Part shown: positions 2,105 to 16,532 of the stretch, piece by piece
Numbering within the stretch: position 1 is the stretch's first letter
How the letters are laid out: every line of letters starts with the position of its first letter
Virus record (IMG/VR): IMGVR_UViG_3300038679_000051
Span: 160,001-224,000 of that record
Source: a virus
Taxonomy: Duplodnaviria; Caudoviricetes
Length of the DNA stretch: 64,000 nt
Strand: one strand, 5' to 3'
The notes under the pieces: model-generated
What the model saw: only the letters and a program-made list of their open reading frames with translations
Database searches by the model: none
What the model was told of the DNA's origin: nothing
Translations under genes and position numbers: made by a program

Positions 2105-5100
2105 TTAACCAAAATGTAAATATAATCTGGTGGTTGTGCTAGCAAGCATTTTATCTCCAACAGAGTCTGTAGCTAATTTACTCCAAGCTTGATTAGTATT
2201 ACCAAGAGGTCGTTGTTCGAACCAATTTGTTCCACCATCAGTAGAACAATAAATACGACCATTGGTAGTCGATGAATATATGCCCACCATCATTATTGCA
2301 GCATTTCCACCAATAACACCACATCTCCAATTTCTATTTCCTGGTGTGCCACCAGGTGGAAAAATTTCAGACCAATTTGCACCAGAATCCGATGACAAAT
2401 ATAATCTTCCGCCATATATGCCTGCTAACATATATTGGCCATTCTGACTACACGCCACAAAATCCCAATTTTTATTTCCTGGTGTGCCGCCAGGTGGAAA
2501 AATTTCAGACCAATTTGCACCAGAATCCGATGACAAATATAATCTTCCGCCATATACACATGCCATTAAATTCGTTCCAGTTGAATCAGATGCAACGTCA
2601 TCCCAACTCTTATCTTCGGCAGTTCCAGTTGGTGTAGTCTCTGACCAATTGGACCCATAATCTGATGATATATATACCCTGTCACTACACACAATCAAAT
2701 TAGATCCATCAGAATCAGATGCTATGCTAGCCCAATATTCATCATTGTCGCCAATTGGTCGTAATTCAGACCATGATGATCCATAATTTGTTGATTTATA
2801 TATCCTTCCAGTCGGTGTAAAACCCGAAATTTTGGATGAAATCACCACGATTTGTGAACCATTAGAATTACTGGCGGCATCCCCCCAATCTAAGTCCTGA
2901 TAGGTATCATTCGGTTGTGTCTCCGACCATATATCTCCACCATTGGTCGACACATACAATCTTTTACCATATGCCCCAGCGATCAAATTTTGGCCGTCAT
3001 CGTCAATCGCTAATGCTGTAAAATGACGATCAACGTTCCCTGCAGGTCTCGCTTCTGTCCAATATTCTGATGATCTAGACGAGGATGATGATCTAGACGA
3101 AGATGAAGAAGATTTAGATGAGGACAAAGAGGATGAAGAAGATTTAGATGAAAACGAAGAGGATTCAGAAGATTTAGAGGATTTAGACGAAGATGAAGAT
3201 AAAGATGAAGATAAAGAAGACGAAGACCAACAAAGATACGGTGTTTGTGATTCTTTGTTTGGCCAATTTATATAAGACCCAGATAATATACCTATTTCTA
3301 ATCTGATCTCTGTTAGGTTCGCGTCAGCGATGAATGAATTAGGTAGAAGTTCTAACTTCCCATTAGCGTCAACACATCCATAATCAAATATGAATCCATC
3401 TCTTGCTATTAATCTCCAGAATGCATTTGGCTCTGCTATATCATTGCCTAAGAATTGGGCAAGATCCCAAGAATCACCAATGTTTTGTAAAAATGCTCCG
3501 CCGAGTATCATAATTGGGCCACAGTCATTAAAATCAGATATATTTGTTAAGGGTTGACAATCGCCAGGCCATCGAATTGTCGTTTGATCGTCTGATTCTG
3601 AACAACCAATCTGCAATTGCATATATCCGGTATAATAGTAAGACGATACGAATTGTGCTGGTAATCCGAGCAATTCATTGTTTTCATCGATACATCCGGC
3701 ACCATACCATGGGTAAACAGTTGGGTAGCATGCACCAATCTCTATTAATCTCCAGTATCCACCACATGTTGCTATTCCAATTCCTTGATATGGTGTTAAA
3801 TCCCAAATTGGATCTGTTCCTCCATGGGTTGTTTTGCTAGCTAATATTGTTGGTGTGCATGAGCATAATGATGATGACGAACTGGATTTAGATGAACTGG
3901 AGCTGGATTTAGATGAACTGGAGCTGGATCTAGATGATGAACTAGATTTAGATGATGAACTAGAAGATTTAGACGACGAACTAGAACTGGAGGATTTAGA
4001 CGACGAACTAGAACTGGATCTAGATGATGATGAACTGGAGGATCTAGACGACGAACTGGAACTGGATTTAGATGACGAACTGGAACTGGATTTAGACGAA
4101 CTAGAACTGGAGGATTTAGACGACGAACTGGAACTGGATGACATAGATGATGATGAACTGGAACTAGACGACATGGAACTAGACGATGAGCTGGAACTAG
4201 ACGATAAACTAGATGAACTAGACGATGAACTAGATGAACTAGATGATGAACTGGAACTGGATGATGAACTGGATGATGAACTGGATGATGATGAACTAGA
4301 ACTGGACGACGACCCAGCGTCGCATGGTATCGATGTGCATACGTCCAATTCATATCCGGTACAACAGTCGACCTGGTTATAATTAATTTGCACCTTAATT
4401 AGAGCACTACCGCTCCATGGTTGATAATTTGGCGTATCAAATTTACTAGGTTTTGGTATTCTCAAAAAGAAAGTCAATTCACGCAATCCACCATCAGGTC
4501 TTAATATTGTTGCTTTAAATGTCTCATTCCCGATTGTTGGGACTGGGACTTCTTTGAGTCTCGTCATTAATTCTGCGACGATTGCATCGCCTACCCATTT
4601 GTCATTCAAATAAAGTTCGTTAAGATATGCATTCCATTGTGCGTCCGTCCAATTAGATAATTGTTGTCGTGATTGATTCCATTCTAGAGATGCGGGCATC
4701 TTCATTGCGTCAATGTCGGGCAATTTAAGATATGTCATTTTTTCTTGGTATTTAAATGGCGTCGGATGCGTCGTATCTATTGGGAAGAATTTTGCTCGTT
4801 GTTCAAAATACACTGGCGTTAATCCAGTGGCACTCAATAATTCTGCCGTCATAATTGCATTGCAACGACTTGGGAATTTACCACCAGCAGCTAAAAAATC
4901 ACCTCGTTCTTTGTCGCACTTATCAGTCGGTGATTTTACTTTTACCGTAAACGCTATCCATTCACCATCATCGCAGCATCCCCGCTTATAAGATCCATCT
5001 TCTTTTCTACAAGCTGGATCAAGCCATTCATCGTAATTCAATTTAAATGTGGCTATTTGTTTGTCGCCATTAATGGCACATTCTTGTGGTGGTATGCATC

Positions 5101-9386: not shown

Positions 9387-9664
9387 TGGGTCTCTTTGGA
9401 TTTCTTAGAAAAACGCCGAATATTCCTGCCCCAATGGTGATCGAATTACACATCACCGGGTCTTTGGAGATCAAAGGTGACCTACAGCGAGATTACGGCG
9501 AAAAATTTAAGTCGTTGGGAGTTTCCCAAAGAGACGATAGACAAATCAAGTCATCTGAGGGAAAGCTTGCTGACGCCATCGCTGCACAACAACTCACTAA
9601 CCTCAAATTGCAGTTTGAAGGACAGAATACGATTGCTGGTCTTGGCCAAGAAGCGGATCAATAA
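9383..9664 (+). CDS. hypothetical protein
   Basis: ATGA overlap with upstream stop, GGAGG SD; track start 9338 probably too early. Confidence 0.65.
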   Translation: MMGLFGFLRKTPNIPAPMVIELHITGSLEIKGDLQRDYGEKFKSLGVSQRDDRQIKSSEGKLADAIAAQQLTNLKLQFEGQNTIAGLGQEADQ

Positions 9665-9737
9665 CGTTGAAGAGAAACGTAAACTGGCGGATGTGCTTTC
9701 GAGAATTAGGCGAATTAGCTTTAGGAGCGGAAAAGCG

Positions 9738-10754
9738 ATGAATTTTGGATTAGATGTAGGGACCAAAAACGTGGTATTGTCTTATCGAGATCAAAGTGGT
9801 AAGATAAAAAGACGTCATGAAATCAATGGATTTTGTAAATTAAACAACGGCGATGGATTGTCTAAGCAGTTATTGACGCAGAACGGCATACCGTTCATTG
9901 AATGTAAGGACAATTTAATAGCATTAGGCGCACGTGCTGAGGAATTGTCCTACGCTTTTAATCAGCCATTACAACGACCAATGGCTGATGGAGTCGTAAA
10001 TGGTGATGAAGATGAAGCCATCAACATCATGTCCACTATTATCAGGTCGTTATTACTTGGCGTCATCGGTGGTGATTCGACGGTTCACTACTGCGTACCA
10101 GCCAAAGCTTTAAATGCTGAATTAAATGTTGCCTTTCATCAGAAAGTGGTTCAGATGATCGTAGATTCGGTCTCATCTAAGGGAGTAAAATTAGATGCCG
10201 TCGCCATAAATGAAGCTCGCGCTTTAGCTTTTAGCCAAATACCCGACAAAACCGCAATAGCCGTTTCGTTTGGTGCAGGAATGGTTAATGCTTGTTATAG
10301 TTTGTTTGGTTTACCAGTGTTTGAATTTAGTCTTGTTGGTTCTGGCGATTGGATTGACCGTGAAACGGCACGAGTGATCAAAGGTGAAACTATGACTTCA
10401 ACATGTCGATATAAGGAAAATAAATTGAAGAATAGAAAATTTACGTTGAAAAAAATGCCGGAAGACAATGTTGGGAAAGCATTATATATTAATTATGGCA
10501 TTCTAATTGAGAATGTCGTCAGAGGATTGGTCGACGGATTCATACAAAATGAAGACAAGGCCAGATTAGAACGACCAATGCCAATAATCTTGGGTGGTGG
10601 AACTGCGATGGTCGATGGATTTCAAGATAGATTTCAAGAGGTCATAAATGATTTAGAAGTACCATTTCAAGTTGGTGAAATTAAGATGGCCGACCCAATG
10701 CTTTATGCTGTAGCTGATGGATGTTTGGTTGCTTCTGAATTACATAAAGGATAA
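9738..10754 (+). CDS. actin-like ATPase (MreB/ParM/MamK superfamily)
   Basis: GLDVGT phosphate-1, SFGAG phosphate-2, LGGGTA adenosine motif, AVADG connect-2; start at AGGAG-preceded ATG 9738 (track 9477). Confidence 0.85.
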   Translation: MNFGLDVGTKNVVLSYRDQSGKIKRRHEINGFCKLNNGDGLSKQLLTQNGIPFIECKDNLIALGARAEELSYAFNQPLQRPMADGVVNGDEDEAINIMSTIIRSLLLGVIGGDSTVHYCVPAKALNAELNVAFHQKVVQMIVDSVSSKGVKLDAVAINEARALAFSQIPDKTAIAVSFGAGMVNACYSLFGLPVFEFSLVGSGDWIDRETARVIKGETMTSTCRYKENKLKNRKFTLKKMPEDNVGKALYINYGILIENVVRGLVDGFIQNEDKARLERPMPIILGGGTAMVDGFQDRFQEVINDLEVPFQVGEIKMADPMLYAVADGCLVASELHKG

Positions 10755-11177: not shown

Positions 11178-11182
11178 GTATT
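11178..11182 (+). promoter_or_regulatory. GTATT element 9 nt before SD-less ATG (dnaE piece 1)
   Basis: same motif 8-9 nt before ATGs at 13814, 14309, 22098, 34833, 58088. Confidence 0.5.
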
Positions 11183-11191
11183 TAATGACTC

Positions 11192-12541
11192 ATGGTTGAG
11201 GAATTTGTTCATCTACACGTTCATTCATTATTTAGCGTTCTGGACGGAATATGTTCGCCCAGACAGTATGTCGAAAAATGCATGGAGCGGAAATGGGGTG
11301 CAATAGCCTTAACTGAACACGGCAACATGGCCTCAATACCAGATCTCTATTTTGCTACGAAGGAATTTGGAATTAAACAAATAATTGGTTGTGAATTATA
11401 TTATAATGATGAACATTTAAAATTTAGAAAAATTGTTGATGCAGGTGGTACGATAGGTGATTTAAAAAAATCCGAAGATTTTGTTATAAAAGATTTAGCA
11501 TCTAGAATAACGCGTAATAGGCACATTACCATATTATGTAAAAACGAAATAGGATATCGTAATTTGTTACAAATAATGAAATGCGCATGGGAGATTGGTT
11601 TTTATTATAGACCAAGAACATGGTTTGACATGCTAGATAAACATCACGAAGGATTAATTATATTATCTGGATGCTTGAATGGACCAATTTCATTTGAAAT
11701 TCGTGAACACATGCGACTGACGAGGGAATATGAAATGCTTGGTGATGTACGTTATAAACAGAAAGCCGAAGAACATCTTCTGACTGGCATAAAATTATTT
11801 AAAAAATTCAAGAAGACATTTGGTGATGATTATTATGTGGAATTACAAATGCCAGGCGTGCCTGATGATGAAGAGGTATTTGCCAAATTACATGCATTAG
11901 CCATACAATCAAAGACGAAAGAAGTAATTACAGGTGACAGTCATTATTTGGAACGCAAAGATTTTATCATCCAGAAACTAATGATGGCTGTCGATCAGAA
12001 CGTTACCATTGATGATCCGAATTTATTCCATGTAAATTCAGATGAACAATTTTTTAAAGATCGTGCTCAATTTAGAGAAACATTCAATTCTAAATCATAT
12101 CGTGACAATTGTTCTATTGAGGATTTTGAACGTGCCTGTGACAACACTCTGGAAGTCGCAGACAAAGTGGTGCCATTTATGCTTGATTCTGAACCGAAAT
12201 ATCCATCTATAGAAAATGCAAATGAAATCCTACGTAAGCGGTGTCATGATGCTCTCAAGATGATGAAATTGGACAAAAAAGAATATGTCGATCGATTAGA
12301 ATTCGAATTAAATAGAATAATAAGCAAAGATTTTGCGTCATATTTCCTAATAACTCAAGACATGACCAATTTTTCTCGATCTCATGGGTTAGTCATAGGA
12401 CCTGGCCGTGGGAGCATAGGCGGGTGTTTAGTGGCATATTTATTGCGAATACATACCGTCGATCCATTAAAATGGGGATTGTCTTTCGATAGATTTCTTA
12501 GTCCTTCACGTGGCGGAAAGATGTTAAAGGTTGTTATGTAA
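11192..12541 (+). CDS. dnaE: DNA polymerase III alpha, N-terminal piece (PHP domain plus palm up to GRGS...FDRFL)
   Basis: VHLHVHS.FS.LDG, ALTEHGNM, GPGRGS, VDPLKWGLSFDRFLSPSR; ends before the catalytic PDID motif. Confidence 0.92.
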   Translation: MVEEFVHLHVHSLFSVLDGICSPRQYVEKCMERKWGAIALTEHGNMASIPDLYFATKEFGIKQIIGCELYYNDEHLKFRKIVDAGGTIGDLKKSEDFVIKDLASRITRNRHITILCKNEIGYRNLLQIMKCAWEIGFYYRPRTWFDMLDKHHEGLIILSGCLNGPISFEIREHMRLTREYEMLGDVRYKQKAEEHLLTGIKLFKKFKKTFGDDYYVELQMPGVPDDEEVFAKLHALAIQSKTKEVITGDSHYLERKDFIIQKLMMAVDQNVTIDDPNLFHVNSDEQFFKDRAQFRETFNSKSYRDNCSIEDFERACDNTLEVADKVVPFMLDSEPKYPSIENANEILRKRCHDALKMMKLDKKEYVDRLEFELNRIISKDFASYFLITQDMTNFSRSHGLVIGPGRGSIGGCLVAYLLRIHTVDPLKWGLSFDRFLSPSRGGKMLKVVM

Positions 12542-12559: not shown

Positions 12560-12955
12560 ATGGACAACGATAGAATTAGGAAATTAATGATCGAAGCGCG
12601 ACATTCGACTTACGTCTTTTATAAGATGTTGTCAGATGATAAAACCAATGACATAAACAAATCTCTTATGGCACCAATGTTGAAGTGGGTGGACGTAGCC
12701 GATGCATTTCTGAATAATGACGAGAAATTAGCATTGACTGATTTAGAAATGATTATAATTGAACCTATGAAAATGTTGGCTGATGCTTGTTCTGCACGTC
12801 TAAATAAGACTATTGAATCACCAGCGATGGAGAAAATAATTGCAGCGACTGATGTCTTTAAACGGAAAAAAGCGTACGTTGAATACATCAACGAATTGTT
12901 CGTTTCTTTAGAAACGATCACTGGAACGAGATACCCAAGAATAAAGGAGGCGTGA
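12560..12955 (+). CDS. hypothetical protein
   Basis: 131-aa ORF with GAGG SD. Confidence 0.75.
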   Translation: MDNDRIRKLMIEARHSTYVFYKMLSDDKTNDINKSLMAPMLKWVDVADAFLNNDEKLALTDLEMIIIEPMKMLADACSARLNKTIESPAMEKIIAATDVFKRKKAYVEYINELFVSLETITGTRYPRIKEA

Positions 12956-12956
12956 G

Positions 12957-13352
12957 ATGTATGACATATTGATCAGTGGTAAAAAATCTGCGATTGGCAT
13001 TATGTTTTTAAAGGATCGTCAATTAATAAAAAGCATAAGAATTGTGATTTCTAAACCGGAAAATTCCGACGTTAATAAATCGGAATTATTAGGTCTGAAA
13101 TATGCATTGTTGGCTGTAATAAATAAGATGATTCCACTTAATTTACACCTAAATACATATCCACTTAGGTCATTGTCACCAAGGACAAATCCATCAGTAA
13201 ACAAAGAACTGATCTCAGAATTAAGGGAATTATGTTCATCATTTAAAACGGTAAATTTATTAAGATTGCAAGATCATGAATTAATAAACCAGGTAAAGGA
13301 TTTAGCGACGATCACGGTTGATCTGCCAGTCGGAGCGACGGTTATATCTTGA
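12957..13352 (+). CDS. RNase H-fold protein, probably degenerate
   Basis: NKSELLGLKYALLAV resembles RNase HI NxAELxAxxxAL; first and third acidic residues not evident. Confidence 0.5.
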   Translation: MYDILISGKKSAIGIMFLKDRQLIKSIRIVISKPENSDVNKSELLGLKYALLAVINKMIPLNLHLNTYPLRSLSPRTNPSVNKELISELRELCSSFKTVNLLRLQDHELINQVKDLATITVDLPVGATVIS

Positions 13353-13797
13353 ATGATAATTCGCCCGGTTTATGAACTTGACCCATATTCAGTGGTCTCT
13401 GACTTGTTACGTCTTTATTCTTTCCTGCGTATTGTCCGGATAGCCATTTCATTAATCCCGTCCTGTCATATGCTGACGCCATATCATCAATTTCAATAAA
13501 AGTTTCATTGTCATTATAGCCAGTGGCATTTATCGGAAAGATTTCATCCTTATAGACATACATCTGATCTGATTCTGGCAATTTATCAAGCATATTGCGT
13601 GGCCAACTGACGATTGATTTCGTACCAGATGGGACATATAAACCTTTGATTGGTCTACCAATGCTGTCGACTATTGACACTGGTGACAAGAAATCATGGT
13701 CCGATTCATGATGAAATGGGCGTCCATTGTTGATTATGGCGGATTTAACCCATACGATTGGTATTAAACATCTAGGGGCATTTTCGAAATTTTTCAT
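13342..13797 (-). CDS. hypothetical protein
   Basis: in-frame ATG at 13797 avoids overlap with 13814 gene (track start 13863). Confidence 0.65.
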   Translation of the reverse strand: MKNFENAPRCLIPIVWVKSAIINNGRPFHHESDHDFLSPVSIVDSIGRPIKGLYVPSGTKSIVSWPRNMLDKLPESDQMYVYKDEIFPINATGYNDNETFIEIDDMASAYDRTGLMKWLSGQYAGKNKDVTSQRPLNMGQVHKPGELSFKI

Positions 13798-13813
13798 ATA
13801 GTATTTTTGAAAA

Positions 13814-14209
13814 ATGATAATAAAAGAATGGTCAGATGTCGTATTGATTGCAGCTAAACGCATACGAAACGATCGTCTGTCGGTCGAGTATGTCCAGCGG
13901 TTGAAATATGAAATTGATCAAATAGAAATGCAGGGCGCTAATGAATATTGGATGGATTTAATTAGAGAAGATAAAAAATTTGATCACAATAAAAACGGTT
14001 TGGTGTTGCCGTTTCTGTTGAATATGACGGACATAGATCCAATTATTTACAAACACATTTATGAACTCGATGACAATGGAATTGTTGGTGATGTGGTTGA
14101 TGTTACGTTGGAAGATGGATCTATGGTTTCGTTACCAGCAAAGGCTCATGTCAAAATTGAATCGTTAAGTAAATTGGTTTCTGATCTTAAGATTGGTGAT
14201 GAGATCTGA
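13814..14209 (+). CDS. DnaE-related middle piece: degenerate palm segment plus intein-N-like tail
   Basis: RLKYEIDQIEMQG and LPFLLNMTDIDPI parallel DnaE RLxYELxVI and LVAYLLGITDIDPI; tail VTLEDG...H...DLKIGDEI resembles HINT block B end. Confidence 0.7.
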   Translation: MIIKEWSDVVLIAAKRIRNDRLSVEYVQRLKYEIDQIEMQGANEYWMDLIREDKKFDHNKNGLVLPFLLNMTDIDPIIYKHIYELDDNGIVGDVVDVTLEDGSMVSLPAKAHVKIESLSKLVSDLKIGDEI

Positions 14210-14233
14210 CTTAAGATTGGTGATGAGATCTGA
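14186..14233 (+). repeat. perfect 24-bp tandem duplication of the ORF end
   Basis: cttaagattggtgatgagatctga at 14186-14209 and 14210-14233. Confidence 0.95.
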
Positions 14234-14308
14234 TAGAGTTTTCATCCCAGCAAAAGTCAATGTTGGTTTCATGCCACATTTTTGATTGTTATTATGTATT
14301 CATTTTTT

Positions 14309-14449
14309 ATGAAGATAACGGCAATTAATTTTAGGAAAGGAAAAATTAGGGACGTACCCGGTGATAGTTACAATGTCGGTGGGTTCCAAGTCATTCCAGA
14401 AATTGGGATTCCACACCGAATTGAACGTCACCCAGACGTTCCTGACTAG
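14309..14449 (+). CDS. 46-aa intein-C-like/DnaE junction peptide (MKITAINFRKGKIRDVPGDSYNVGGFQVIPEIGIPHRIERHPDVPD*), not in ORF track
   Basis: translated by hand; ends in VPD immediately before out-of-frame IDIDY; GTATT-N8-ATG start. Confidence 0.6.
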   Translation: MKITAINFRKGKIRDVPGDSYNVGGFQVIPEIGIPHRIERHPDVPD

Positions 14450-16532
14450 TGACATTGATATCGACTATTTGCCTGAAGCGAGAGAGAAAATTAAAGAATA
14501 TATTTCGTCTAAATATGGATTTGAACATGTATGTTCGGTTGGTCTATGGCAATCATACAATTTTAAAATGGCAATGCAAGATGCTGCCAAAGCTCTTGGC
14601 AAAGATAAAGCCCCGGTATTTAAAATAACAAAAACTTTGCCAGACGATTTTGATGATCGACCAATAAATGAAGTATTAAAGGCATTAACTTCGGAACATA
14701 TCAAACAAGAGAATCCAGAATTAAGTGAATTAGCTGATTATTATTCTACTGATGATGGTAAAATGGTCGTAGACATGGCATCAAGGATGACTGGTTTGTT
14801 AAAGACGCAAGGCAAACACGCCGCTGGAATAATCATATCTAATGTCAATTTGTTTGAAACCATACCTATGAGCAAACTTGGCGGTCTGTGGACGTCACAA
14901 TGGACCGAAGGATATTCACCACAATTATCTAAATTTGGTTTGATTAAATGGGACGTGTTGGGACTCAAGACGATGTCCTATATTTGGAAATGCATTAATT
15001 TCATTAAAGAGAAGAATAAAGACATAGGGTTGCCGAAATGTGTCATTTGTAATGGCACTGGCTCTAGCGAATCGGAATATGAGAAATTCGGTGACAAATG
15101 TATGGAATGTAGTGGATCGGGTGTATCGATCGAACACATAGATTTTAATGTCAAAGAAGTATTACGATTAGCTAATGATTTGAAAACTGAATCAGTTTTT
15201 CAATTCGAGACTGATTTGGCCAAATCAATTTTAAAAAAAGGTGGCGTCAAATCTTTTAATGATTTGTTGATTTATACGAGTTTAGGTAGACCAGGGCCAT
15301 TGCCCTTGATTGACGAATATATTGAACGTCGTGATGATAAAAATGAAAAATGGAGAAAACAAGAGCATCCTGATGTTGTTGAATTATTTAAGGATACTTT
15401 CGGAATAGTGGTCTTCCAAGAGACGTTGCAATTATATTGGACAAAGATTTGTGGTTTTACCGTTCCCGAAGCTGAAGCAGCTAGAAAAGCAGTGGCTAAA
15501 AAATGGGGTGAACAACTTGAAAAGGTAATGAAGAAAGCGGAGATTGGTGCAGCGAAAAAAATTGGACATGATGAAGCTGTGAAATGGAATAAACGAATCG
15601 AGACGTTTGGACGCTATGCCTTCAATAGATCACATGCCGTAGCCTATTCGATAATAGCATATCTTTGTTTGTATTTCAAATCAAAATTTCCTGTTGAATG
15701 GTGGGCGGCAGTATTGAGCATATGTGATGATCGCAACAAAATTTCGAATTATGTTATGGTGTCAAGAAATGAAGGCGTCAAATATTCGGCATTACACTGT
15801 GACAATTTGACCAAAGATTTTGTGGTTAGGAACGACGAAATCGTTCCCGGTCTATCTGGCATCAAGGGCATTGGTGATAAGGCAATGGCTAATGTCTTAT
15901 TGAATGCTGGTACGAAATATCAATCGGTTGATCATTTTATTGAGAAGAATGGCAAGAATAAAATATTGATGGAGAGATTGATTAAATTGGGTGCATTTGA
16001 TCACTTATTTCCTAATAGATCTGCGTTATGGATGTGGTATTTATTGAAACATTCGACGTGTAAACAATCTAAGGAAGCTAAATCATATTTTAAAACCAAA
16101 CTTGGAATACCAGAGAAGGGTAAATTGAACATATCGTTTGAGGAAGTGGTAAAATTGTCTCCAAAATGGGGATTGAGGAAGATTCTATTTTTTGAAAAGG
16201 ATTTCTTTGGGTATCATTTCACATCTCCAATGTCTTGTTATAAATTTAGTGGACATACCATCGAGGATGCGGCCGAAACCAATGTAATGGAAGTAGTAAT
16301 ACAAGACAATGAATTAAGGCAGACTAAGACTAATAAGAAATATCTAAAATTATTGGTTACTGATGGGACGACTAGTGCGACGTTGTTGATTTGGGATGTT
16401 GGCATAATAGATAACATTGAGGATGTGTCACCAGGATCCGGTATTAGAGTGGAAGTGAACTGGGATGAAAAATTCAATAGTTATTCACTTAGGAGAAATT
16501 CCAAGATTGTGTTACTTGACAAGGATGATTAA
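14361..16532 (+). CDS. dnaE: DNA polymerase III alpha, C-terminal piece (catalytic DIDID from 14451, fingers, OB fold)
   Basis: DIDIDY, GKHAAGIII, KWDVLGLKT, VFQFE, GRPGP, FNRSHAVAY; the first 30 codons of this frame may not be the true N-terminus. Confidence 0.9.
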   Translation: MIVTMSVGSKSFQKLGFHTELNVTQTFLTSDIDIDYLPEAREKIKEYISSKYGFEHVCSVGLWQSYNFKMAMQDAAKALGKDKAPVFKITKTLPDDFDDRPINEVLKALTSEHIKQENPELSELADYYSTDDGKMVVDMASRMTGLLKTQGKHAAGIIISNVNLFETIPMSKLGGLWTSQWTEGYSPQLSKFGLIKWDVLGLKTMSYIWKCINFIKEKNKDIGLPKCVICNGTGSSESEYEKFGDKCMECSGSGVSIEHIDFNVKEVLRLANDLKTESVFQFETDLAKSILKKGGVKSFNDLLIYTSLGRPGPLPLIDEYIERRDDKNEKWRKQEHPDVVELFKDTFGIVVFQETLQLYWTKICGFTVPEAEAARKAVAKKWGEQLEKVMKKAEIGAAKKIGHDEAVKWNKRIETFGRYAFNRSHAVAYSIIAYLCLYFKSKFPVEWWAAVLSICDDRNKISNYVMVSRNEGVKYSALHCDNLTKDFVVRNDEIVPGLSGIKGIGDKAMANVLLNAGTKYQSVDHFIEKNGKNKILMERLIKLGAFDHLFPNRSALWMWYLLKHSTCKQSKEAKSYFKTKLGIPEKGKLNISFEEVVKLSPKWGLRKILFFEKDFFGYHFTSPMSCYKFSGHTIEDAAETNVMEVVIQDNELRQTKTNKKYLKLLVTDGTTSATLLIWDVGIIDNIEDVSPGSGIRVEVNWDEKFNSYSLRRNSKIVLLDKDD

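Follow-up and report, generated by a model that had tools for sequence, protein, structure and literature searches.

Layout of the polymerase gene and the gap in its catalytic motif

The DNA analysed here (the window) is a stretch of 64,000 nucleotides (nt) that covers 160001-224000 of a virus record (IMGVR_UViG_3300038679_000051; Duplodnaviria, Caudoviricetes) that is 320,399 bp long, has direct terminal repeats and comes from groundwater or coal-bed metagenomes. It carries, in several pieces, the gene of a C-family replicative DNA polymerase (DnaE, or Pol III alpha), and the catalytic motif of this polymerase is interrupted by a stop codon and a change of frame. The N-terminal part, DnaE-N (11192-12541, + strand), contains the PHP domain and the first part of the palm with its GPGRGS loop, and ends with ...FDRFLSPSRGG (Pfam PHP and DNA_pol3_alpha 2-98). 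The C-terminal part, DnaE-C, is itself in three pieces, all on the + strand. Piece 1 (13814-14209) consists of an N-terminal extension up to ...MTDIDPI followed by a beta-rich tail of about 55 residues and a TGA. Piece 2 (14309-14449; 46 codons and TAG) opens with about 32 residues of an insert domain begun in piece 1, the C-half of which reads MKITAINFRKGKIRDVPGDSYNVGGFQVIPEI, and goes on with GIPHRIERHPDVPD. The polymerase body (14454-16532) resumes after a 7-nt gap, at ATT, as IDIDY..., and comprises the rest of the palm, the fingers, the HhH and an OB-like C-terminus (Pfam DNA_pol3_alpha 101-260, DNA_pol3_finger and HHH_6). All the features of the C-family polymerases, i.e. PHP, palm PDxDxD, fingers and HhH, are thus found across DnaE-N and the body.

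A preliminary description of the window, made from its letters, had an open reading frame (ORF) start at ATG 14309 and end as HPDVPD-stop, and had the DnaE frame resume just beyond it. Both claims hold. The 46 codons of the ORF (MKITAINFRKGKIRDVPGDSYNVGGFQVIPEIGIPHRIERHPDVPD) end with CCT 14441-14443 and GAC 14444-14446, followed by TAG 14447-14449; the +1 frame then reads GAC (14451-14453) ATT GAT ATC GAC TAT, i.e. DIDIDY, and is open to 16532. Read-through of the TAG would be of no help, as had been pointed out, since an in-frame TGA (14450-14452) comes directly after it. When 14447-14453 (TAGTGAC) is left out, the product becomes HPDVPDIDIDY, as had also been predicted, and this fits the uninterrupted relatives: HPDVPDVDIDW in P0004, QPDVPDIDIDY in L019, and PDxDxD in about 150 proteins. 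Also present are the features on which alternative accounts had been built: ACTAGT as a palindrome and, in frame, GTG 14361 and ATG 14373.

The gap (14447-14453, +) is made of the UAG stop, a U and a GAC (14451-14453) that is the proposed landing codon, and it is the same in the relative L002. The proposed take-off codon, GAC 14444-14446 (+), encodes the first catalytic Asp, equivalent to D401 of E. coli. Alignment to the solved Pol III alpha structures (2HPI and 2HNH) places the insert between the codons of two catalytic aspartates: the Asp of PD aligns with D463 (Taq/Thermus) and D401 (E. coli), and the next one with D465 and D403, numbers which we take to be those of the catalytic pair.

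An assembly error, one of the alternatives raised in the preliminary description, did not stand up. Logan contigs from three runs, at 22-41x word depth, keep the 7 nt and are identical over 13750-14950, which excludes a one-off misassembly, the independence being less than full as these runs may share a sampling campaign with the source. An alternative genetic code was rejected: the standard code agrees with both the usage of stops and the stop-to-stop statistics of ORFs (TAG ends 46 of the 334 long ORFs of the phage genome), and reassignment of UAG alone would not open the frame because UGA comes next. Rfam searches of the region were empty both at the gathering threshold and at E<=10; as 7 nt are, in addition, too few for any known intron, a group I, group II or bulge-helix-bulge (BHB) intron was rejected. 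So was reinitiation at ATT 14454, the product of which would be without the first catalytic Asp and hence a dead enzyme. No suppressor tRNA or special tRNA-Asp is encoded by the phage, whose genome has only a tRNA-Met and a transfer-messenger RNA (tmRNA). The tmRNA gene (tag peptide AKENIFAVNARKGVAFAA) adjoins the tRNA-Met gene, the sole tRNA gene, outside the window (G000:C1:38777-39541); a phage-borne ribosome-rescue RNA is worth recording where the polymerase mRNA would, under the mechanism proposed below, pause ribosomes at a stop codon.

Conservation and selection across the gap

The body protein of L002 is 82% identical to that of the window and synonymous sites are saturated between the two. 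The site CCTGACTAGTGAC is nevertheless identical in both, the flanking codons carrying synonymous changes. By comparison, 63% of the four-fold sites differ, as do 18 of the 39 conserved Asp codons and 13 of the 19 conserved Pro codons; the probability that the four spacer bases and the take-off codon are identical by chance can be put, as a rough estimate, at about 0.01-0.02. Upstream of the gap, the changes between the window and L002 are 14 synonymous against 10 non-synonymous in the frame of piece 2, and 1 against 23 in the frame of the body. Downstream, over the first 30 codons of the body, they are 14 against 2 in the body frame. Selection thus switches frame exactly at the gap site. Selection on the piece 2 frame upstream of the gap means that this frame is translated as far as PD. 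Every relative has intact frames to either side of the break.

The phage GenBank collection contains no relative that is close by DNA, and the protein matches there are all at most 34% identical. Scans of IMG/VR and GTDB for patterns of the HPDVPD-TAG, generic type a and type c junctions (types defined below) gave chance matches only, besides the already known contig L097.

Junctions in other lineages

Related DnaE genes were compared for a conserved GAC-stop-N-GAC gap. L002 has one, and the other lineages with a fractured gene show stop-bearing breaks of their own: in every readable one, a piece 2 of 43 to 47 codons closes with a stop inside the PDxDxD codons. The inserts found at the motif across the junction types are of 1, 2, 5, 7, 7, 7 or 9 bases (type g, L096, with a contig that stops 35 nt upstream of the body, was left out of the comparison). 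With the insert set between hyphens, the junctions are PD-TAGTGAC-IDIDY in type a (window and L002), PD-TAGTT-IDIDY in type b (L005-L008; GAC UAG UU AUU), PDV-T-DIDLL in type c (L097; GUU UGA C), PDI-TA-D(V/I)DL in type d (L100/L101, L103 and L105; GAY AUA UAG AU), FP-TGAGCGT-DVDIDF in type e (L099), LP-TAG GTG CTC-DIDIDC in type f (L098) and FP-TGAATCA-DIDLDF in type h (L137; CCA UGA A UCA GAU).

The body frame is without the first catalytic Asp in types b, c and d, and there is no ATG, GTG or TTG between the upstream stop and the motif in types d and h; at least four junction types therefore have a body frame that lacks either the first catalytic Asp or any start codon. With no start codon for the body in types d and h, an active polymerase is impossible there without recoding. 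The AUAUA run of type d permits perfect +2 re-pairing of tRNA-Ile, and this junction is kept in three lineages (L100, L103 and L105) the bodies of which are 69-76% identical, with 51-65% of the four-fold sites different. The type c sequence is almost a prfB shift site. A layout of codon, stop, one base, triplet and resumption, with a 7-nt insert, occurs three times (types a, e and h); the landing triplet matches the take-off codon in type a (GAC for GAC), and is CGU for CCA in type e and UCA for CCA in type h. Type b recurs in many samples, and there the insert domain has collapsed to KGDNGNVPGKA.

One more body start was seen at the end of the L096 contig (L096:1-60). Its first codons, GTG GAC GTT GAT TAC, directly follow ...GAATAGTG, and a hairpin (AGAGGAttttGTCCTCT) is found 18 nt upstream; the contig end leaves room for a longer, structured gap.

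The nuclease cassette

What separates piece 1 from piece 2 is a homing-endonuclease gene or what is left of it. In the window, a remnant is found on the minus strand (14165-14272) with the first codons (MKPTLTFA...) and the upstream region of the gene; about 760 nt of the nuclease gene have been deleted at around 14232-14234 relative to L002 (by BLASTN, 903-1663 of L002 are unmatched). L002 itself has decayed fragments of a DUF7487 gene, also on the minus strand between pieces 1 and 2. Intact DUF7487 genes lie at the same place in L098, L100 and L105, and encode a helix-turn-helix (HTH) and a PD-(D/E)xK, TnsA-like nuclease domain. The window also has a perfect 24-nt tandem duplication (14186-14209 and 14210-14233, +) of the last seven codons of piece 1 and its TGA, so that LKIGDEI-stop appears twice, against one copy in L002. 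No nuclease gene accompanies the uninterrupted genes (L003, L017-L019 and L107-L111).

The most telling comparison is between L105, with a cassette, and L111, without. They are the same phage: 99.3% identical over the 2719 nt to the left and identical over 1450 nt from position 3928 of L105 onward. L105 has a 1140-nt cassette in place of 21 nt of L111, and the next 66 nt, which encode GIPH...PDI|DVDLQPAARPLI, differ by 16 substitutions and a 2-nt insert. Changes packed in this way across the motif, beside the cassette, make the insert part of the mobile unit. The pattern is the signature of homing with co-conversion. We infer that the nuclease would recognise the DNA of the motif itself, which would explain why the target region was rewritten, and that the insert would protect its carrier from the nuclease.

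The preliminary description had offered an insertion footprint as an alternative to recoding. The insert is a footprint, namely that of a homing-endonuclease cassette, but this makes no true alternative, since the footprint is most likely bypassed as well. The gap and its recoding geometry had been seen correctly. What had been missed is that the gene is fractured, the context that accounts for the existence of the gap.

Start signals and the insert domain

ATG 14309 had been said to carry a GTATT-N8 motif in common with other replication genes. It does (GTATTC at 14296-14308, spacer included), and so do piece 1 (ATG 13814; GTATT at 13801-13805, 13801-13813 with its spacer) and, with N9, DnaE-N (ATG 11192; 11178-11191), GTATT(T/C) lying in all three 8-9 nt before the ATG; other genes use AGGAG. 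Genome-wide, GTATT-N8-ATG precedes 14 ORFs of at least 40 amino acids (aa) against 2.0 expected, a 7-fold enrichment. The signal is kept before the DnaE-C start in L002, L003, L005 and L019, and the one of piece 2 is kept in L002. Neither GTATT nor AGGAG is found before ATG 14373, GTG 14361 or ATT 14454. GTATT(T/C) may be the -10 element of a phage-specific promoter for short-leader mRNAs, or a translational operator; a promoter and terminator scan of 13600-14700 did no better than on shuffled sequences and gave no terminator between the pieces.

The way the pieces fit together is best seen in relatives with an unbroken gene. P0004 (813 aa, 57% identical to the body) reads uninterrupted ...NKNGLLLPFLLELIDVDPIKTGLSHKWERHPDVPDVDIDW..., and L019 (62% identical) has an unbroken, in-frame insert domain of about 85 aa, followed by an uninterrupted PDIDIDY. 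Piece 1 is colinear with both, and homologous to the first 75 or so residues of the DnaE-C proteins (about 800 aa) of a large uncultured phage family. ORFs of about 130 aa of the piece 1 type and with the same architecture form more than 25 clusters at 50% identity in a profile-free search, which makes the arrangement widespread. A protein search with the 46 aa of piece 2 gave no candidate, this query sharing too few words with its targets.

The insert domain resembles the Hint fold of inteins in its pattern, and its C-half ends ..VIPEI|G. None of the intein catalytic residues (N-terminal Cys/Ser, TxxH of block B, terminal Asn, +1 Cys/Ser/Thr) is conserved in 16 N-halves and 8 C-halves, and the halves gave no Pfam Hint or intein match. 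Judged by these residues, the domain is intein-like and non-splicing, and protein splicing would not rejoin the halves. The predicted complex of the piece 1 tail with piece 2 scored 0.31, against a mark of 0.34, and gives no evidence either way.

Proposed mechanism and alternatives

The reading that we lean towards, on a balance somewhat better than even, is that the gap of the window is bypassed by a +7 hop from GAC to GAC. A DUF7487 / PD-(D/E)xK nuclease cassette would have invaded DnaE-C and brought with it both non-splicing intein-like halves, the start signal of piece 2 and a rewritten stretch with the stop-containing insert; the nuclease gene would later have been deleted in this phage. 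Ribosomes would start at ATG 14309, translate the 46 codons of piece 2 and pause with peptidyl-tRNA-Asp on GAC 14444-14446 and UAG in the A site. The tRNA would then unpair, the mRNA slide by 7 nt, and the tRNA re-pair on GAC 14451-14453, decoding being picked up at AUU 14454 to give a single chain, ...HPDVPD-IDIDY.... Such a fused chain (junction peptide HPDVPDIDIDYLPEAR) would have both catalytic aspartates at the consensus spacing, and ribosomes that terminate at UAG would yield the 46-aa peptide alone. The sequence and its conservation, the switch of the selected frame and, in relatives, the link between cassette and insert are observations; the hop and its efficiency are inferences.

A number of points weigh against a hop. 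None of the stimulators of gene 60 of phage T4 is evident, be it a take-off stem-loop or, within the gap, a Shine-Dalgarno sequence. A small hairpin, GAACGUC-ACCCA-GACGUUC (14423-14441, +), ends 2 nt 5' of the take-off codon and is of doubtful significance; no conserved stimulatory RNA structure was found, the 101-nt stretch having a z-score of -0.94 and the 7-bp hairpin being weaker in L002 and differently built in L005. In test constructs in E. coli, the efficiency of stop-hops is as a rule low. In type b, the 5-nt gap offers the take-off tRNA no cognate triplet to land on (GUU pairs at two of three positions), and the first GAC lies at +11, where landing would delete ID; a match between take-off and landing codons is therefore not a general rule. 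The matched geometry put forward in the preliminary description thus holds for the window and L002 and fails in this sister lineage. Type f, with its in-frame TAG GTG, looks like a stop-restart site, which would mean that covalent continuity is not always required, and type e has a TTG 10 codons upstream in the body frame; from these two cases, a fused chain is not needed in all lineages.

The last two junctions make separate bodies plausible in the family (in L098 TAG-GTG is followed by LDIDIDC), and so lend themselves to the main competing explanation, to which we give roughly one chance in five: two polypeptides instead of one, piece 2 ending at UAG after 46 aa and the body starting at ATG 14373 or GTG 14361 as M...FLTS-D-I-D-I-D-Y. 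The polymerase would then be a non-covalent assembly of DnaE-N, pieces 1 and 2 and the body, the second GAC providing the first catalytic Asp. The body frame is indeed open from 14361, with an upstream in-frame ATG in both the window and L002, the duplicated GAC lets a separately initiated body retain all three aspartates, and the polymerase of this family already comes as separate DnaE-N and DnaE-C. However, the ATGs of the window and L002 are non-homologous (they lie 2 codons apart) and neither has a GTATT or AGGAG; the 26-codon leader, with 1 synonymous and 13 non-synonymous changes, is not conserved as a protein; and the invariant Pro before the first Asp would turn into Ser. Elsewhere, the body frame of L005-L008 has neither that Asp nor a nearby canonical start, and that of L100, L103, L105 and L137 has no start codon at all, so that the cassette family relies on something other than separate initiation. 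The claim of recoding at a matched GAC-UAG-N-GAC is in this way strengthened by upstream-frame selection up to PD, by a 13-nt site that is invariant in a relative with saturated neutral sites and by homologous cassette junctions that need recoding, while a body initiated at ATG 14373 (..TSDIDIDY), an option named in the preliminary description, keeps some probability for the window.

The two other explanations are far less probable. A simple +1 frameshift at GAC-UAG, which we hold to be very unlikely, would read AGU GAC AUU and add two residues to the product, ...HPDVPD-SD-IDIDY. Shifts of +1 are favoured when a stop occupies the A site, and the prfB-like GUU UGA C of L097 would work in this way; here, however, tRNA-Asp cannot re-pair on ACU, and a Ser-Asp between the catalytic pair would destroy the D-x-D spacing, which about 150 relatives keep without exception. 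Just as improbable, taken jointly, are removal of the gap before translation, by RNA excision or editing, and a decaying pseudogene in a phage replicated by another polymerase. Decay or deletion of the cassette's own nuclease gene would suit these, but there is no intron family match and no mechanism is known for the excision of 7 nt; purifying selection on the body is strong in three lineages (82% aa identity with saturated synonymous sites), contigs of the L005 type recur in many samples, and no relative has lost either of the frames that flank the break.

Comparison with known systems

The hop proposed for the window is closest to the bypass of T4 gene 60, which is associated with the mobA homing-endonuclease element (NC_000866; Manning & Atkins, bioRxiv 10.1101/2022.08.31.505936; PMC5009743). 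In both, take-off and landing codons are the same, with UAG directly after the take-off codon (as read, for the window, from sequence alone), the first ORF is of exactly 46 codons, the gene of an essential replication enzyme is split by a nuclease cassette and has the gap in a conserved catalytic motif, and the gap moves with the mobile element, the nuclease being lost in some lineages ('hit and run'). The differences are the length of the gap (7 nt here and 1-9 nt in relatives, against 50 nt), the take-off stem-loop and gap Shine-Dalgarno sequence, not detectable here, the nuclease (DUF7487 / PD-(D/E)xK against the HNH MobA) and the host gene (DnaE against a topoisomerase). Piece 2 has no similarity to residues 1-46 of T4 gp60. 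A basic patch (FRKGKIR and equivalents) is found 33-39 residues from the stop in all piece 2 peptides, where it also falls within a folded domain; a nascent-peptide stimulator of the gene 60 type lies about 25-30 residues from the P site.

The site of the programmed +1 frameshift of prfB (RF2) is CUU UGA C. The GUU UGA C of L097 occupies the same catalytic motif as the gap of the window, and, as with prfB, a stop in the A site would drive realignment of the P-site tRNA; in contrast to prfB, there is here no upstream Shine-Dalgarno stimulator and no autoregulatory logic, and the window needs +7, not +1. As in the stop hopping of laboratory constructs, the peptidyl-tRNA would re-pair on an identical codon just past the stop, but those hops are in frame (+6), whereas the one proposed here is +7, changes frame and takes place in an essential gene found in nature. 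According to a 2016 review (PMC5009743), in-frame stop hopping was not known to be used naturally, and the documented natural cases of bypassing came down essentially to T4 gene 60 with its homologues and a single mitochondrial system of yeast. In this last, the mitochondria of Magnusiomyces capitatus, many short coding inserts are skipped and codon matching is at times imperfect, as in L005 and L099; there, however, translation is mitochondrial, the codon in the A site is an unused one and no nuclease cassette is linked to the inserts (PMC5009743).

Fractured genes, with DnaE among the examples, have been described in phage replication genes (Dassa, London, Stoddard, Schueler-Furman, Pietrokovski 2009, PMC2677866). 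The arrangement there is similar: a gene in two halves, separated by a free-standing gene for an endonuclease of the PD-(D/E)xK type, and an insert that brings control elements. The flanking halves found here differ in lacking all intein catalytic residues, and that paper describes neither a second break in a catalytic motif nor recoding (the word 'frameshift' does not occur in it). Our literature search found no published description of recoding in a phage DnaE.

Other features of the locus

Throughout the family, DnaE-N and DnaE-C are separate, with ORFs in between (seen in L003, L097, L111 and L137). In the window, three small conserved ORFs lie between the two parts (12560-12955, +; 12957-13352, +; 13342-13863, -); they have syntenic counterparts of like size in L003 and L005, and no family matches. 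The N-terminal extension of DnaE-C (13814-14040) is a degenerate second copy of the palm segment that ends DnaE-N (12230-12520), with a match to positions 13-91 of Pfam DNA_pol3_alpha at E = 0.047; this copy is without the GPGRGS loop, so that the nucleotide-binding loop must come from DnaE-N. The body contains a zinc-ribbon-like CxxC...CxxC insert (15027-15110, residues 223-250 of the 723-aa ORF) which is conserved in P0002 to P0004 and gives weak DnaJ_CXXCXGXG and Anti-TRAP matches. Directly upstream of the dnaE cluster is an actin-like ATPase gene (9477-10754), of the Volactin family in the syntenic L003 and L111; this synteny too is family-wide.

Other insertions were seen in the same genes. 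On the P0004 contig (L003:5077-9056), DnaE-N and DnaE-C have between them a Mom-like gene and a TnpB of the IS605 type. The body gene of L002 has a canonical mini-intein at about 3060-3500 (..YAFNR|CLDADE...IHKN|SHAV..), at a site where the window is uninterrupted, and the body of L019 spans about 2.9 kb for 534 aligned residues. On the evidence of these sequences, the DnaE polymerase gene is a hotspot for several kinds of mobile insert.

Implications

Taken over the whole family, the junctions suggest, with even odds in our estimation, that mobile nuclease cassettes in the DnaE genes of jumbo phages install stop-containing inserts of 1-9 nt between or beside the catalytic Asp codons, that the carrier is thereby made immune to the nuclease, and that synthesis of the polymerase then depends on hops or shifts of +1, +2, +5 or +7. 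If so, a single mobile element would link fractured genes, dead intein-like domains and recoding, and this would be a second, independent natural system, after T4 gene 60, in which a homing endonuclease goes together with translational bypassing. It would include the shortest programmed hops known, and the series formed by the lineages (+1, +2, +5 and +7, with matched and unmatched landing) would be a ready test set for what the ribosome needs for bypassing. Gene finders would systematically mis-annotate such polymerases as truncated, as with the 719-aa ORF called here from ATG 14373. For the phages, the hops may hold the polymerase at a set low level, and short hops would be a recurrent solution imposed by selfish DNA on essential phage genes.

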